A stretch of DNA of 64,000 nucleotides from Escherichia phage ALITA: the sequence record PP359570, one strand, 5' to 3'. Both the position numbers and the translations under genes were made by a program. Positions 10,755-37,463 of the stretch are shown in pieces. Under the pieces are notes generated by a model. That model saw only the letters and a program-made list of their open reading frames with translations. It was not told the origin of the DNA and ran no database searches. Position 1 is the stretch's first letter, and each line of letters begins with the position of its first letter.

Positions 10755-13529
10755 TTAGTTTACCAGTTTATTTATATCTGGTAAAAGATTTATTTCACCT
10801 AAGAAATCACCTTCACCTTCCTCTAGCCAACTCTCATATGCTTGTGCATGATTATAGTTACCATCAAAAGAATCTGCAACAAATTTTTCTACAGTTTTTC
10901 GAGATGTGCCAGCACCAAATACACCAAGTTTAATACCATTGATCGGTAAAGTGGTGCTTGTGGGTACTTTCTCTGTTGCAACACGGTTGATATCTATAAT
11001 CTCCTGTACGGTTGTGTTCCATTGTAAGCATTTAACACAACGGGTATGCGCTACATACAGTAGGTTTCGCTCTGCCTCTTCCAGTCCTACCCATTCACCA
11101 GTCTTTTTATCATAGTTGGAAGGAAAATCATTAGCAACAATAACCTGATCCCACTCCAAACCTTTAGACTTGTGTGCTGTAGTCAGTGTGACTTTTGCTG
11201 TAGGAGAATTTCTATGCGTTCTAAGTGTATGTGCTATAGTGTTTGCCTTACCAGAAACTACGATGTTTAACAAGCGTTTAGCATCTGGATCAGCCTCTGC
11301 ACACTCAACAAATTCATCCCAGTCTGCGTAAGGTAATACAGTTTCATGTTTTACTTTCTCAATATCTCCTCTCCGAAGAGCATTAACACTATCTACCATA
11401 GAGATAAAATCCCTGGTATCTACGTTAATAATAATTTCTTCCCCATCTGCAATACGATCCATTGCCTCCATAAGCAAGGTTAAATTCTTGCGAAAGATGA
11501 TAGTGTAAGGTTTTGTATAGTCTACAACATCTGATTTGTAGCTACCTACTACAGTATCAAAGCCTTTACCAACCAAAGGATGACGCAAAGGTTCTTTATC
11601 GCTTAAAATCATATTGGCAATGTTTGCCACTTTGGGGCCAAAACGGAAGCAAGCAGTTAATGGAAGTTCTGCCCCATACTTAGCTGTTTCAATCATCATA
11701 TTAGAGCTACCTCTAAATTGATAAATGCAGTTGTGGCTAAGAATTTCATTGCCAAAGAAGTTAGCAGTATCCTCTACTTCAATATCATAATAGATACCCT
11801 CACTATCTACAATGTCCACAATCTCTTCTGCCGTTACAGTATCACCATCTTTTACCAACACAGACATGCCTTTAAACAAACCCGCTGCCGGAATTAAGTT
11901 ATATTTGGCACTGTTCACAGAGGACATGCATTCTTTTAAAGATGCAAACGGAACTATTTCAAGGATCTTTTGTGCAAAACTCAATGCTTCACGATAAGAA
12001 TTGAAATATTTACGTACACGGTAACGACCTTCCAATTTAGCAGCACTTACGCTTACACCTGCTTTAATCAGTGAAGAATAGATCGGCATTTCACTTTCTG
12101 TCCACTCAAAACTAACTTGTGTTCCTTTACAACCTTGTGCTCGCAAAGTCACTGTTAGCATTTTTCTTTCATCTACTGCACAATTGATGCTGTGCCAGTG
12201 TGGATAAGCAAAATGATAATCTTTATCCTCTAAAAGTTTAAAACCATTTTGTCCGAATTGTTCAAAGATGTTATTGATCCTTTCTTGATTAATGCCGCGT
12301 GAACTTGCTTCAAATACACAAGTAGGAATGCCATATTGTAAACTGTAAGCCATTTCTTTTTCCATAGCAGCTTCACGGTTTTCAACAATATCCAACACCC
12401 ATAATTTCTGTGCTTTTTCAGAACGTGTACGTTGCCCCAGTTTAGAAAAACCTTCTTTATCATCGAATTTGTTAGTGATCCCTACTCGGAAACCTAAATC
12501 TTTCCTCCACATTAGGTATACCACCATCTGATCATCTTTCAGAACATAGGATGAAGCCCAAATACGATGGTTATGTGTCATATCTAAAGTTTTACCTGTG
12601 GCAGTAATAATATTCCTACCTTTTGTACGTGTAGATAAAGTCTTATTTGTTACTTTTCTAAATGTAACTTTACCATTAGAATAAGACTCTACCTTATCAC
12701 CGATTTGCAGGTCTTTCATTGTAACCTGACCATTCTCGGTATTAAGTACCGTGTTTTCCGACACACATTGGAATTCATCGCCCACTACCACAATTTGTTT
12801 TGCAGATTTAGCATTTCGCAGAATAGACAAGAATGCAGGGTTAACATCCTGGAATTCATCACCAAAAATAATATCATAACCAAGATCAGCACCAGACAAT
12901 TCAAACAATTTTACATAGGTGTCATGCGTCATTAAAGTATCTGTGTTAGGATCGATGCGCTCTCGCCACAATTGTTTTGCATACTTAACTACTTCTGTAA
13001 TTAGTTTGTGTTCGTTAATACCTTTTCTTTTAATATCTGCAAGATGTACACTAGGAAAATGTTTACGGCTGATAAAAGGATCATCCGAAAATTCAAACTT
13101 ACCTACGGTTTGCTTGATCATTAAACCGATCATAGCACGAGTTAAAAGTGTTTTACCTCGTTTATCAATAAGATTATTAATCTTAAATTTCTTTGCTATC
13201 TCACTACCTGTACCTGCAACGTTAACATACTGTCCTTCTGGTCGTGACAGTTTTGCACGTAAACGATGATCCAGGAATTGATAGCAAATAGAATGCAATG
13301 TACGGCATTCTACATTTAGTGGCATCTTACGTCGTGCTTCTTCTGCCATGCTTTTATTGAAAGCTAAGTAAAGAATGCGATCTTCTGTACTGTTAGCCAG
13401 CAAATAAAGTGTTGACGTTTTGCCTGATCCAGATTTAGCTTGGATAGTTAAAAAGCGATGGTCTGGAAAAGCCTCCTTAATAGCTGTTTGCTCTTCTGTT
13501 GGAGTGAAGCTCAACTCTTTCTTAGCCAT
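10755..13529 (-). CDS. UvrD/PcrA-like SF1 DNA helicase, interrupted by an in-frame intein
   Basis: Walker A AKSGSGKTST, motif II GDEFQD; motif III split as VVVGDEFQ / CIYQFRGSS by a 346-aa insertion; start set at MAKKE with GAGAGG RBS. Confidence 0.8.
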   Translation of the reverse strand: MAKKELSFTPTEEQTAIKEAFPDHRFLTIQAKSGSGKTSTLYLLANSTEDRILYLAFNKSMAEEARRKMPLNVECRTLHSICYQFLDHRLRAKLSRPEGQYVNVAGTGSEIAKKFKINNLIDKRGKTLLTRAMIGLMIKQTVGKFEFSDDPFISRKHFPSVHLADIKRKGINEHKLITEVVKYAKQLWRERIDPNTDTLMTHDTYVKLFELSGADLGYDIIFGDEFQDVNPAFLSILRNAKSAKQIVVVGDEFQCVSENTVLNTENGQVTMKDLQIGDKVESYSNGKVTFRKVTNKTLSTRTKGRNIITATGKTLDMTHNHRIWASSYVLKDDQMVVYLMWRKDLGFRVGITNKFDDKEGFSKLGQRTRSEKAQKLWVLDIVENREAAMEKEMAYSLQYGIPTCVFEASSRGINQERINNIFEQFGQNGFKLLEDKDYHFAYPHWHSINCAVDERKMLTVTLRAQGCKGTQVSFEWTESEMPIYSSLIKAGVSVSAAKLEGRYRVRKYFNSYREALSFAQKILEIVPFASLKECMSSVNSAKYNLIPAAGLFKGMSVLVKDGDTVTAEEIVDIVDSEGIYYDIEVEDTANFFGNEILSHNCIYQFRGSSNMMIETAKYGAELPLTACFRFGPKVANIANMILSDKEPLRHPLVGKGFDTVVGSYKSDVVDYTKPYTIIFRKNLTLLMEAMDRIADGEEIIINVDTRDFISMVDSVNALRRGDIEKVKHETVLPYADWDEFVECAEADPDAKRLLNIVVSGKANTIAHTLRTHRNSPTAKVTLTTAHKSKGLEWDQVIVANDFPSNYDKKTGEWVGLEEAERNLLYVAHTRCVKCLQWNTTVQEIIDINRVATEKVPTSTTLPINGIKLGVFGAGTSRKTVEKFVADSFDGNYNHAQAYESWLEEGEGDFLGEINLLPDINKLVN
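11730..12767 (-). mobile_element. intein (346 aa) within helicase motif III
   Basis: Begins with Cys (CVSENTVL...), ends ...SHN followed by Cys; block-B-like TxxH (THNH); excision would restore contiguous GDEFQ-CIYQFRGS; size suggests an embedded homing-endonuclease domain. Confidence 0.7.
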
Positions 13530-23735: not shown

Positions 23736-24287
23736 ATGCGGATTACTGATAAGTATGTGTTCTTCTTCTCGGCAAAAGATGAATTTAGCAACTGGTATCT
23801 ATCATCTTTTATTGAACCTTTAGCTCCCAAGTATAATAATTCTATTACAAGTTCTGTTGAATTTACTTGTGTGGAACAATATATGATGTGGAGAAAAGCA
23901 TGTTTGTTTTATGATTACAGTATTGCATCTTCTATTTTAACCGGAGATCTAAGATATACAGGAGAAAAAGAACAAGCATATTATAAACGACTAGGCAGAT
24001 TAGTTAAAGATTATGATGAAGATACCTGGGCTTCTTTACGGGAGAAGATTGTCAAGCGTGGTTTGTATCTTAAATACACACAAAATGAAGATCTCAAAAA
24101 TAAACTTATCGCTTACGCAGATAAGGAGTTCGTAGAGGCAAGCCCCTATGATTCTATTTATGGTATCAAAATGGGGATGTGGGATCGGGACGTGGAAAAT
24201 AAGGATTGTTGGAAAGGGCAAAATCTTTTAGGAAAATGGCATACAGACCTTGCTGTTTATCTAAAATCACAATCTGATATTTCCTGA
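23736..24287 (+). CDS. NADAR (YbiA/DUF1768-like) domain protein
   Basis: FFFS..DEFSNWY, EQYMMWRKA, LGRLV, KFVEASPYDSIYGIKMG match conserved NADAR blocks. Confidence 0.55.
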   Translation: MRITDKYVFFFSAKDEFSNWYLSSFIEPLAPKYNNSITSSVEFTCVEQYMMWRKACLFYDYSIASSILTGDLRYTGEKEQAYYKRLGRLVKDYDEDTWASLREKIVKRGLYLKYTQNEDLKNKLIAYADKEFVEASPYDSIYGIKMGMWDRDVENKDCWKGQNLLGKWHTDLAVYLKSQSDIS

Positions 24288-24504
24288 TATTTTGAAAATT
24301 TTTATTTTTATAAAAAGGGGTGTGGGTTTCATGTACGGAAATCCACCCTCTGAATAATATATCCAGAGTAAGTAGTATTCTGTACTCTGTTAATAAAGTA
24401 TTTAATTTGTTTGTTGGATTATGGTGGCTGATCTTTAAAAGGCATACTATCTCTTAACTACTACTTATAACAAAACAGTAAAATCCTTTTTATAAAAGTA
24501 CAAA

Positions 24505-24715
24505 ATTATTTAAAGTTTTTACAGATTTTCGGGTACAAATTTTGAAAATGAAAAGTTCAAGTTTGGTCAAAATTATTTAAAGTTTTTGTACGTATTTCTG
24601 TCCAGATTTTGAAAATGAAAACTTCAATTTTTTAAAAATTCCCCAGTTTATTTAAAGTTTTTTTGCCTTTTTCCGTAGAAAAATCAAAAATGAAAAGTTC
24701 AATTTCGTGTTTTTA
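24505..24715. repeat. three ~70-bp imperfect direct repeats (iteron-like)
   Basis: Each unit contains TATTTAAAGTTTTT ... TTGAAAATGAAAA(G/C)TTCAA; non-coding, AT-rich. Confidence 0.6.
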
Positions 24716-24723
24716 TAGGTGTG

Positions 24724-24840
24724 TTAATGAGAATCATTTTCGTTTGTAAATGAGAATCATTATCATTTAACTATGTAAGTGATAATCATTCTCAGTAAGA
24801 GAATGAGAATCATTAGCAAATGAGAATTTTTCTCATTTAC
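24724..24840. promoter_or_regulatory. cluster of five Fur-box-like palindromic sites (AATGAGAATCATT family)
   Basis: AATGAGAATCATT x3, GTGATAATCATTCTC, and perfect palindrome AAATGAGAA-TTT-TTCTCATTT; core matches part of the GATAATGATAATCATTATC consensus. Confidence 0.45.
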
Positions 24841-25098
24841 AGAATAACGCGCAGGGGCGGTGTTTGTCTCGCGCTCCCGTGTCCCCTCGCCATACAATAA
24901 GAATAGCATAACCAATAACAAAAGCAAGCGATTATTTTTATCTTTACATTTCTTTACAAATTTATTTTAGACGAGCTACCGGCGATCAACCTTCCAACCA
25001 GTGCCCCCTGGTATGTTAGCCCCGCCTTTACGCCGTGGGGTGGCGTTTCCTCTTCTGTATGTAAAACAGTATAAGCCCGATCCCTGGGCTTGTCAAGA

Positions 25099-25365
25099 TT
25101 ATTTTTTGTTTTCTTGCCAGGATAGGACACCTAACCAAAAATACATGTCGCCCCGCGCCCCTGGTGGGATCTTGCTTTCCCCGCCGCCACTGCAAGCCCA
25201 TAAATAACCATCAGCGAACGGATCAAAGTGATCTATCTCTTCCACCTTATGATCGCCCAGGTTGAGAACGGTTTCAACCTTTAAGCCCGTTGCGCTTGCT
25301 ACCTGGTGCACCGTGCCGCCTTGCCAGCCCAGTGAGTGCATGAGATGTAAAGAAGTATTTGTCAT
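25099..25365 (-). CDS. hypothetical protein in GC-rich segment (uncertain)
   Basis: 88-aa ORF with GC-rich, enteric-like codon usage unlike flanking phage DNA; weak RBS; 3' end overlaps a consensus TTGACA-17-TATACT promoter on the same strand. Confidence 0.25.
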   Translation of the reverse strand: MTNTSLHLMHSLGWQGGTVHQVASATGLKVETVLNLGDHKVEEIDHFDPFADGYLWACSGGGESKIPPGARGDMYFWLGVLSWQENKK

Positions 25366-25737
25366 GGTATCGCCCTTTCTTTGTTGTGCGCCCTGGTTGG
25401 CGCGGTAGAAAGATGATAGCCGTTTCCTTCATATATAGCAAGCAAAAAAGAAATGAAAAAAAGATTAAAAAATGGTTGACGTTCCTCACCTGGTAGCGTA
25501 GTATTCATCTTGTCGAGGGGGGCAAGACACAACGACAATAAACAATAGGCGGGTGCAATGCAAGACGGGCAAAGGTGAGGATCTCCACAATCCACCGTCA
25601 CAATAACATTACTTATAAAAGGTTGATAACGATGATCAAGAAAGAAAATAGCTTGACGGTTGGAACGATTAACGCTATCATTCTTGCCGTTCCATTTTGG
25701 ATTGTAGTTGCGGTTATTATTTTCTAAAAAAATATTC

Positions 25738-25793
25738 TTGACAACGTTTTTTAATCTGATAAGATGTATCACATAGGGCGGCAATAGTGCCGC
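25738..25793 (+). promoter_or_regulatory. promoter plus 5' stem-loop cassette (PeSL-like) #1
   Basis: TTGACA, 16-nt spacer, TAAGAT, then CACATAGG-GCGGCA-ATAG-TGCCGC hairpin about 25 nt before the ATG. Confidence 0.6.
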
Positions 25794-25817
25794 TCATAAC
25801 AGAAGAGAGAAATAATC

Positions 25818-26090
25818 ATGGCATCATATAGCGCATCAATGATTGTAAAGGGTATCACTGGTAAACCTATGCGCGGTGGCGGATCTTTCGCTAACATCAA
25901 TATTGATGGACGTTTATCCCTGGACGCAGCGATCACAGTGGCACGGGAAACATTTAAAAAAGAATGTAATTTCAATAAACAAGATTATCTCGGTTTTGCT
26001 ATTGAAAAAACCGCGCGCTTTGTGGATTATAAAAGCCCGAAAATGATCGACACTACACTAAAAGCGCAAGATGTAGCGTTTTTGCTTTAA
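25818..26090 (+). CDS. hypothetical protein
   Basis: 90-aa ORF behind cassette #1. Confidence 0.5.
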   Translation: MASYSASMIVKGITGKPMRGGGSFANINIDGRLSLDAAITVARETFKKECNFNKQDYLGFAIEKTARFVDYKSPKMIDTTLKAQDVAFLL

Positions 26091-35689: not shown

Positions 35690-35960
35690 ATAAGTTATCT
35701 AACTAAATTAAAACTAATTATCTCACTTTTATTTATAACTTACTGTTACTATCTCATTGATAACCTTATATTAAACAACAATAACTAATATAAATCATTA
35801 CTAAGCTAAATATAATCTATCTAACCCTTAAAACTACAATTATAATCTATCTAATTGTTGCACAAAGTAACTATTAAATTGTTAGTAACATTACTAAATA
35901 ATTCACATCCTATCTATTTATGATCTAATCTTTACCTTTCTATCTATTACCTAAATAACC
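35690..35960. repeat. G-depleted tract with reiterated ATCTA / TATCTA motifs
   Basis: About 270 bp with only ~5% G on the plus strand and 10 or more ATCTA-type repeats; non-coding. Confidence 0.5.
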
Positions 35961-36517
35961 ATTTCATACAGTAATTATTCCATATGGTAATCATTTCATA
36001 CAATAATTATAACAAGAAATATAATTCGCAAGCGTATCATTAGCAGCCTATGCCGGACACATAGGCGGCTAATAATAACGCAACTACACACCCCACATAA
36101 TAACCATCAACGATGGTTATTATTTGTGTTTATGTAGCTTGCAACAATTGCAAGCGCAACAATATACATGGTATATTGTATTCCCTTACATTGTTGCGGT
36201 GCGTTATTATTAGCTAATGTTTAGAACATTGGCTATAATATAAGCTGCATATAATAAACTATGCAATAATAAACATGGTGAATAATGACACCGATGATCA
36301 TAATGCGCCACCCTCCAGGGGGCGCTATGTAAACACAAAGAAATCTTTCTTGTCAAGAAAATATTGCCACTATTGCGCAAAATTATTTTTATCTGAATAG
36401 ATGATTTTTCATACTATTGCCCCTATAACATACCTCATTTGTTGAGCCTACTTTCTTAAAAGCGCAATAAATCAGAATTATCTTGATTTTTAGGGCGTTT
36501 TATAGTACAGAAAGTAT

Positions 36518-36536
36518 GCAAATGATAATCATTATC
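36518..36536. promoter_or_regulatory. near-consensus Fur-box-like 19-mer
   Basis: GCAAATGATAATCATTATC matches the consensus GATAATGATAATCATTATC at 17 of 19 positions (16 consecutive). Confidence 0.5.
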
Positions 36537-36702
36537 AGCTATCTTCCACGGGTAGCACTATTTCACGCCAGATCATTTCATTTGGCAAGGTGTATATAGA
36601 TGTTTAGACTTGCCAAGCCATTGATTTACTTAGAATTTATCTGTTTTGTTGTGAGTAATACCTTTCTTACTCAGAAAATAATCAAAAGTCTTATAAGTCA
36701 TT

Positions 36703-36738
36703 GAATGATAATACAAATGATAATTATTCTCATTGATA
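36703..36738. promoter_or_regulatory. tandem degenerate Fur-box-like sites
   Basis: GAATGATAATACAAATGATAATTATTCTCATTGATA. Confidence 0.35.
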
Positions 36739-37093
36739 TTTGAGGGGGACGGTCGGCAGAAATCGGGGGGCGCTGAAAATCGCGTTAAGCACCTCTCGCA
36801 AGCGAGCAGTATTTTGCGGCAAGTTATTGATATTATTGACTTTACGCTTATGAAAAGGGGGTGTGTCGAAATAAATCGGGTATACCGGAAAATTTTTGTG
36901 GCATAGATATTTATTTGTCTATATTATGTACAAAGGGGTGTATTAAAAATAATAGGTATATATAGAATAATTGATAGGGAAATCCTATACTAATCCCTCC
37001 ATTAATGATGTTTCTATGTTGCTGTTATTGTAATAGATGAAAAGACGCTGTATGATGTGTGGCATGAAACGTAAACTTATAAAGGAGTCTGAT

Positions 37094-37463
37094 ATGTGTG
37101 TCCCTCTTAGCAGTCCACTGCTGTTAGAATTTTACAAAGCATGGATGGAAGATCATTCCTCAATGCATCGTGAGAATGTTGGTTTGTGTATTTGCCTTAT
37201 GGATTATCTGGCAACCACTATGTCAAAGAAAAAAAAAACCTACGCAAGAAGATATAGAACATTTCAAGATGGTTCGTAGTAAAACGCTGGAAGAGATGAA
37301 ATTGCAATTCACGTGTGCTGGGCTATCCTCCTTCCTGCCCTTTAATGATGACCTTCTGTGTTATGAAGATGAAGGTAAGAAACATTCTTGCCATACTAAC
37401 CCAGAGAGATTGCAGTGGGTGAAAGATCGTATCGAAGATGCAAATAATGTTTGCATTGGATAG
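37094..37463 (+). pseudogene. frameshifted member of a three-gene paralog family (frameshift at an A10 run, about 37229-37238)
   Basis: Track ORFs 37037..37279 and 37170..37463 are N- and C-terminal halves of one protein alignable to the 39245 and 40237 products; frames join if the A-run were A9. Confidence 0.6.

Follow-up and report, generated by a model that had tools for sequence, protein, structure and literature searches.

A G-poor, strand-asymmetric tract near the right terminal repeat of a phi92-like phage

The stretch of DNA analyzed here, referred to as the window, consists of 64,000 nucleotides from Escherichia phage ALITA (PP359570). It is the genome of a Justusliebigvirus (phi92-like, Stephanstirmvirinae) and shares ~95% identity with several GenBank phages. 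The tract described in this report lies within an ORF-free gap of 1.7 kb (35341-37036), and the genes that flank it are in the + sense. The last gene before the gap (34957-35340) encodes a T4 gp30.8 homologue; it shares ~43% identity with T4-like phages and gives ~1000 tblastn matches. The use of this gene as an anchor to rV5-like relatives was abandoned, since its matches are to T4-like phages. No tRNA match was found in the 64-kb window.

Organization of the terminal non-coding region

The direct terminal repeat (DTR) was located by mapping the annotated 343-bp DTR of Salmonella phage UAB_1 onto the window. Both copies, DTR-L and DTR-R, are annotated in the phi92 record, and four records start or end exactly at window position 36445. 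For phage BME3, a DTR of 342 bp was reported, and the termini were analyzed with PhageTerm (PMC12210895). By these mappings, the window is a permuted assembly that carries a single copy of the DTR, and its predicted physical ends are at 36445 and 36787. The tract is found 455-800 bp upstream of the DTR, inside the right-hand end of the genome. It had been suggested that the tract might itself be a packaging site. Since the ends mapped in relatives correspond to 36445 and 36787, at least 455 bp rightward, that suggestion was not borne out: by this mapping, the tract is near the genome terminus and is not the terminus itself. The modules that were recognized, in order from left to right, are as follows.

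35356-35382, + strand: intrinsic terminator at the end of the last operon of the right arm, GGGCGCACAAAGCGCCC plus a T-run (terminator scan)
35585-35603 and 35643-35661: pair of Fur-box-like sites, matching GATAATGATAATCATTATC at 14 of 19 and 15 of 19 positions
~35650-35990, + strand: G-poor tract
35954-36007, + strand: 16-bp tandem repeat, AATAATCATTTCATAC, 3.4 copies (TRF), at the right border of the tract
36046-36214: multi-hairpin element (covariation and folding)
36445-36787, + strand: DTR, 98.3% identity to the annotated DTR of UAB_1
36518-36536 and 36713-36737: Fur-box-like sites within the DTR (consensus match)

The tract is best explained as one module of a conserved non-coding region of ~1.1 kb that is located just inside the right DTR of phi92-like phages. 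The left border of this region is the terminator, whose hairpin is also present in Justusliebigvirus, Phapecoctavirus, Klebsiella phage KP13-26, and two metagenomic lineages. Between the first two Fur-box-like sites, immediately upstream of the tract, there is an ATGCA...TGCAT palindrome. The site at 36518-36536 in the DTR agrees with the consensus at 17 of 19 positions and contains a perfect TGATAATCATTATCA core. Fur-box-like matches were found upstream of the tract in most of six other lineages, with clearly separate pairs in two of them, and at offsets that correspond to those of the DTR sites in all six lineages scanned.

Fur-box-like sites are present in excess. The number of matches to AATGATAATCATTWTC with three or fewer mismatches was determined to be 30 (3.9 expected), and 25 sites reach at least 14 of 19 positions (6.2 expected). 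This excess suggests that the sites may be bound by the host Fur or by a phage protein of the same specificity. Further sites are located at 12203-12227 and at 24723-24817, where four to five Fur-like boxes in tandem are followed by a GC-rich segment (25001-26000, 44% GC). The latter group is situated in a second large ORF-poor region (24288-25800) that also contains a 67-bp tandem repeat at 24501-24631.

The copy number of the 16-bp repeat varies from ~2 to 4 among Justusliebigvirus strains in an alignment of 15 genomes. The GenBank records of phages arall, inny, and muut carry a short 'repeat_region' at or beside this repeat, which is the most that GenBank records annotate of these features. 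Our search of the literature found no description of the tract, the multi-hairpin element, or the Fur-like boxes.

The multi-hairpin element is found 50 bp downstream of the tract, and a further ~230 bp of non-coding DNA separates it from the DTR. It begins with a hairpin at 36046-36066. Next comes a long-range stem of 15 bp (36068-36082 with 36200-36214), which encloses three or four additional hairpins. In an alignment of 11 sequences from several lineages, the 45 predicted pairs are 99% paired, and 12 of them exhibit compensatory changes; one compensatory double change was found within the genus. None of 500 shuffles matched this covariation, and it collapsed in the slid controls. The calculated folding energy as RNA is -68.6 kcal/mol for 181 nt, with a z-score of -7.9; for folding as DNA, the z-score is -9.9. 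The compensatory pairs and the strong folding indicate that the region functions in a single-stranded form at some stage. Nearly all of the substitutions exchange one Watson-Crick pair for another, and G-U pairs are nearly absent. One of 495 cells is U-G on the + strand, and the five C-A cells on the + strand correspond to G-U on the - strand, so that the active form of the element may be DNA, or it may be the - strand. A search against Rfam 15 gave no match with E ≤ 1 in 35000-37300 and none at the gathering score in the whole window. This element is possibly the more interesting object of the region. The word ATCGCG(K)TA, common to the right boundary of the DTR and a block at 35440, was set aside because three occurrences against 1.7 expected are not significant.

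Base composition and short words of the tract

Of the 271 nucleotides at 35690-35960, 10 are G (3.7%), and the remainder are A (39.9%), C (17.7%), and T (38.7%). The means over the 64-kb window are 18.1% for G and 19.2% for C. The preliminary description had reported about 5% G over 270 bp; the depletion is real, and the length was underestimated, since the G-depleted stretch extends over ~340 bp with 4.1% G. The tract is the lowest-G segment of the 64 kb at window sizes of 100, 200, 270, and 340 bp. At 270 bp, the minimum within the tract is 3.3%, the next lowest locus is at 8.5%, and the 237 non-overlapping windows of this size have a mean of 18.1% with a standard deviation of 4.0%. The minimum for C anywhere in the 64 kb is 7.8%, and thus the tract is the most base-depleted segment on either strand. 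The lowest value for G in bases 1-50,000 of phi92 is 7.4%. The strand asymmetry is therefore as strong and as unlike the rest of the window as had been stated, and the composition is far outside that of the other intergenic regions of the window.

The A+T content of the tract is 78%, and the kilobase that contains it has the lowest GC content of the window (31.3%). The depletion of G is not a consequence of AT-richness, since the equally AT-rich and ORF-free segment at 24241-24840 is balanced, with 12-16% G and 10-14% C. The borders of the tract are sharp, and the neighboring + strand genes are skewed in the opposite direction, with G over C. A regional mutational bias is unlikely for this reason. 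The tract had been called non-coding, in agreement with its position in the ORF-free gap and with a longest stop-free run of 39 codons in any frame.

On the other side of the DTR, the segment that precedes the first gene (36788-37036) contains 12% C on the + strand and a C-free run of 52 nt (36932-36983). It mirrors the G-poor tract across the repeat, with a skew that is not exceptional for the window. The word AAAGGGGTGTG (with at most one mismatch) was found four times against 0.95 expected, including occurrences at 24314, 36855, and 36932. Three of the copies are located in non-coding DNA that opens rightward gene blocks, and the word may be a promoter or a regulatory signal.

The four sequences that had been quoted as examples of a repeated ATCTA motif are all present. 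The claim of ten or more repeats holds for the ATCT core (11 copies at 35690-35960) and fails for ATCTA itself (8 copies); the longer forms TATCTA, CTATCTA, and TATCTAA occur 5, 4, and 3 times, respectively. In the full tract there are 9 copies of ATCTA and 12 of ATCT, and the - strand has no copy of either word; CTAA is found 13 times on the + strand and once on the - strand. The expected number of ATCTA words is 2.4, and none of 2000 dinucleotide-preserving shuffles reached 9. The word was chosen post hoc, and some 5-mer reaches 9 copies in 14% of such shuffles (P = 0.14). The ATCTA repeat is real, and it exceeds only modestly what a low-complexity tract of A, T, and C would yield. On the + strand, ATCTA is absent from 35991-36444, from the DTR, and from 36788-37036, and three of the nine copies are disrupted in sister strains in the alignment of 15 Justusliebigvirus genomes. 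Two other assignments for parts of the tract were discarded. The segment at 35686-35709 resembles a Tus-Ter site but lacks the essential GTTGTAAC core. The resemblance of the ATCT words to the class II pause signal of T7 (ATCTGTT) was set aside because the phi92-like group is not known to have a T7-type RNA polymerase.

Conservation among relatives

The tract is 90-96% identical in all 55 of the Justusliebigvirus records found, and a BLAST search with the tract gave no match in other genera. The 155 bp just downstream (36005-36160) are ~78% identical in other genera, and homologous loci could be compared in phAPEC8, phiWec179, Klebsiella phage KP13-26, Citrobacter phage Tr1, and several viral and metagenomic contigs. 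Scans of contigs with conserved words of the hairpin element located four loci in viral contigs and six in metagenomes; four matches in genome contigs were rejected as chance occurrences in unrelated genomes. Among the records consulted, MG065639, MG065645, MG065656, and MG065689 are labeled 'Campylobacter phage' and are ~94% identical to this E. coli phage region; they are probably mislabeled or contaminants. The record of vB_EcoM_ZYD (PQ110661) is filed under Vequintavirus, and its sequence here is Justusliebigvirus-like.

In the relatives with enough upstream sequence, the local lowest-G window of 200 bp is located ~350-490 bp upstream of the conserved hairpin. Eight lineages of the Stephanstirmvirinae share a G-poor tract at this position, with 4-10% G, 15-29% C, 32-52% A, and 20-38% T. 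The excess of C over G is 8-18 percentage points in the well-delimited tracts and +2 in the automatically chosen 48-nt segment of KP13-26. Between genera, the tracts cannot be aligned, and low G is the only constant. The A+T content is 58-72% in the sister lineages, and AT-richness thus appears not to be shared. Of the two results that would have refuted the observation, namely a composition like that of other intergenic regions and a lack of conservation in relatives, neither was obtained. Judged from these loci, the property shown to be conserved is the composition of one strand, and neither a sequence nor a phased motif. This composition looks selected because sequences that have diverged so far would otherwise have drifted to ~18-22% G. 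The tract is a real and conserved feature, and it is probably selected. In our reading, selection would act mainly on the composition of a single strand, and any preference for particular words would be a loose one.

It is unlikely, in our estimation, that the tract has no specific function and is a low-complexity spacer, either shaped by a local mutational bias or renewed as units without G slip or are amplified, for which only its length between modules would matter. Such a spacer would be expected to evolve as fast as the neighboring non-coding DNA, and this is what was found: in 15 Justusliebigvirus genomes, 16.7% of the columns are variable in the tract, compared with 16% for the flanking DNA and 10% for the last gene. 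The 11 A-to-G variants in the tract correspond to a per-site rate that is about the same as in the flanks (8%), and the substitution spectrum within the genus therefore failed as a proof of G avoidance. The favored words also differ between lineages, the length of the tract ranges from ~200 to 380 bp between genera, and the adjacent 16-bp repeat varies in copy number. However, the depletion of G on the same strand in eight lineages that cannot be aligned is difficult to obtain without selection, the sharp borders and the opposite skew of the neighboring + strand genes do not fit a local bias, and indels within the genus are nearly absent from the tract (one 18-bp deletion in 15 genomes).

The tract had also been proposed to be a replication origin. 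As a component of an origin, it would be an easily melted zone for unwinding or helicase loading that is adjacent to structured DNA and initiator sites. The A+T content of the tract and its place in the lowest-GC kilobase are consistent with such a role, as are some ATCT-plus-T-rich words that, in our reading, resemble the 13-mers of oriC. The sign of the skew, G-poor to the left of the DTR and C-poor to the right (12% C), is that which diverging forks would produce, and the Watson-Crick-only covariation of the multi-hairpin element suits a DNA structure. However, there are no DnaA boxes in 35300-37100 (TTATCCACA with at most one mismatch, or TTWTNCACA) and no phased iterons. The AT-richness appears not to be conserved, the C-poor stretch is not exceptional within the window, and the cumulative skew turns only with gene orientation, at 19 and 48 kb, and not here. 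A role in replication initiation is accordingly considered to be improbable.

The remaining proposal for duplex DNA was an array of sites for a nucleoid protein. H-NS, IHF, or Fis might coat the tract, or Fur might polymerize across it from the flanking boxes. The tract is AT-rich, strong Fur-box-like sites are found directly to the left, and two more are located in the DTR. IHF consensus sites are absent from the tract, and neither AA/TT curvature periodicity near 10-11 bp nor significant helical phasing of ATCT, TATCT, CTAA, or TAAC was found in any lineage. The AT-richness that would favor such proteins is not maintained across lineages, and binding to duplex DNA does not account for the absence of G from one strand. 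Of all of the explanations considered, this one appears to be the most remote.

Possible functions and comparison with known systems

Among the candidates that had been put forward, a transcribed G-free leader fits best, judged from the aligned loci, because the composition is conserved and the sequence is not. We infer that the tract acts in a single-stranded form, most likely as + strand RNA. For 296 nt of + strand RNA from the tract, the calculated folding energy is -20.6 kcal/mol (z = -0.9), and shuffled sequences fold equally well; the - strand still folds, with -47 kcal/mol. The composition suits a role for the + strand because the removal of G prevents folding far better than the removal of C.

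A possible explanation, favored only tentatively, is that the + strand provides a "naked" RNA, neither folded nor translated, that serves as a Rho-entry insulator or as a leader ahead of the hairpin element and the repeat. An RNA in the sense of all of the flanking genes would be made across the tract. With ~340 nt nearly without G, it would have no G-C or G-U pairs, few start codons, and no Shine-Dalgarno-like sequence, and it would thus remain naked. Since any RNA of this composition would have little structure and few start codons, these two properties do not count as separate evidence. The tract would then be an entry or loading zone for Rho or a similar single-stranded RNA-binding factor. 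Rightward transcription that leaks past the intrinsic terminator, or that begins at the Fur-box module, would be stopped before the polymerase reaches the hairpin element and, beyond it, the junction of the concatemer at which cutting forms the ends. The tract might also be a mere unstructured leader that allows the hairpin element to fold alone.

The best 78-nt window of the tract contains 24% C and 3% G, and the best windows of this size from six other lineages with well-delimited tracts contain 19-31% C and 1-9% G; the 48-nt segment of KP13-26 contains 9% C and 8% G. There is no absolute richness in C, since the tract has 17.7% C against a mean of 19.2% for the window. YC dimers are the preferred contacts of Rho. 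An excess of these dimers was dropped as support for a rut site because there is no enrichment in the tract (C after a pyrimidine 0.51, expected 0.55), and the value is lower still in Phapecoctavirus. Several further observations count against Rho entry: a good intrinsic terminator is already present upstream, the ~340 nt of the tract exceed a typical rut site severalfold, and A-to-G variants are tolerated within the genus. The near absence of G-U pairs from the hairpin element counts against a function as RNA more generally. Scans for sigma-70 promoters in the window, phAPEC8, and Tr1 gave counts no higher than those of shuffles and no conserved position, and our literature search found no transcriptome for any phage of the Stephanstirmvirinae.

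It is rather unlikely that the tract is instead the 5' arm of a non-coding RNA of the phage, with the multi-hairpin element as the 3' domain and possibly a Fur-controlled promoter. The G-less arm would then be a platform for Hfq, S1, RNase E, or a target RNA, and Rho would have no part. The order of Fur boxes, tract, and structured element is retained across lineages, the contrast between an unstructured arm and a structured domain is strong, and a terminator-like hairpin with a T-run is found on the + strand inside the multi-hairpin element. However, the searches described above identified neither a promoter nor an Rfam match, the lack of G-U pairs would be unusual for an RNA, and the arm is not conserved in sequence between genera, which argues against pairing with a fixed target.

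The closest rival of the tentatively favored Rho-entry or leader explanation, and only slightly less likely, is a role in packaging. The tract would be an accessory array for packaging or end processing, located upstream of the cut at the DTR, and would serve as a DNA platform to which the small subunit of the terminase or a cofactor binds. The words YTATCTAA and CTAAC on one strand would be recognized, as a possible counterpart of the SRL and SRR arrays of T7. These arrays flank the 160-bp terminal repeat of T7 and were reportedly described by Dunn and Studier in 1983; to our knowledge, their function has never been shown. T7 packages its right end first, and by analogy the flank of the right end is where packaging might be expected to be initiated. 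Packaging of T7 DNA is set off by events at the concatemer junction (PMC3276506).

The position and orientation of the tract, 455-800 bp inside the right DTR, are fixed in every lineage, which favors a packaging array. The T7 SRL sequence, which adjoins the left terminal repeat, was checked in NC_001604. At positions 161-345 it contains 9-11% G and 30-36% C, with eight copies of CCTAAAG on one strand, and a CTAA core is common to this word and those of the tract. Certain words also recur across lineages that cannot be aligned, mostly or only on the + strand. CTATCT was found 15 times in four lineages (1.9 expected), AACTAA 22 times (4.8 expected), and TAAC 68 times (27 expected), and GATAAC is a recurring + strand word in Phapecoctavirus. 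However, conservation of the words already fails within the genus, they are not phased, and the lack of G between them is left unexplained by a packaging array. The T7 arrays abut the repeat, which the tract does not, and the word of the tract is missing from the DTR and from the other flank. The right ends of the N4 record and of the Felixounavirus UAB_69 record are coding up to the end of the record, and a skewed tract or array is thus not a general feature of phages with a DTR.

A broader interpretation, which we regard as improbable, is that the tract is an arm of an undescribed terminal control element in which four conserved boxes for the host Fur bracket the G-less arm and the covarying cloverleaf-like element. 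If this were true, these parts would act jointly, as single-stranded DNA or RNA, to control either the duplication of the terminal repeat or the initiation of packaging or replication, and the process would be tied to the iron status of the host.

Detailed knowledge of the recognition, duplication, and cutting of terminal repeats comes mainly from T7. Phage-therapy collections make wide use of the large myoviruses of the phi92/phAPEC8 group, for which such knowledge extends to the positions of the ends. The ~1.1 kb inside the right end appears not to be junk, as it consists of ordered and conserved modules. These modules are targets that bear on packaging, transcription insulation, and possible iron control, and they call for practical caution in genome engineering and in the choice of the point at which assemblies are re-opened. 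Should the tract turn out to insulate by Rho entry or to be a platform for packaging, strand composition alone would in this case be the target of selection.

Three kinds of known systems can be compared with the tract. Terminase regions with repeated sites for the small subunit include the R sites of lambda cosB, pacL/pacR of SPP1, and the pac hexamers of P1. Such sites are located ~100-200 bp from the cut, are conserved in sequence, and in some cases contain bent DNA. The tract is similar in having short words repeated in non-coding DNA near the place of end formation, but it is 455-800 bp away, its words are poorly conserved, and there is neither phasing nor curvature.

The resemblance to rut regions is found in an excess of C over G that extends for at least ~80 nt, in the predicted lack of structure, translation, and consensus, in the location at the end of a transcription unit, and in the retention of composition rather than sequence. 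The tract differs from rut regions in that neither C itself nor YC dimers are in excess, its length is about four times that of the usual site, and it is downstream of a good intrinsic terminator.

As with the SRL and SRR arrays of T7, the tract is non-coding, is near the DTR of a linear phage genome, and contains many copies of a short word, all of them on the top strand, which is also the strand depleted of G. In T7, however, SRL starts within 15 bp of the repeat and the word is found within the repeat as well as on either side of it, whereas the tract is 455 bp away with the hairpin element in between, is one-sided, and has no copy of its word in the DTR. The T7 word CCTAAAG is regular, and the ATCTA and CTAAC words of the tract are loose and poorly conserved. 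The depletion is stronger in the tract (4% G) than in SRL, and there is no sequence homology between the two. The tract is closest in kind to the arrays that flank the terminal repeat of T7 or to the rut-type regions, though defining features set it apart from each of them.
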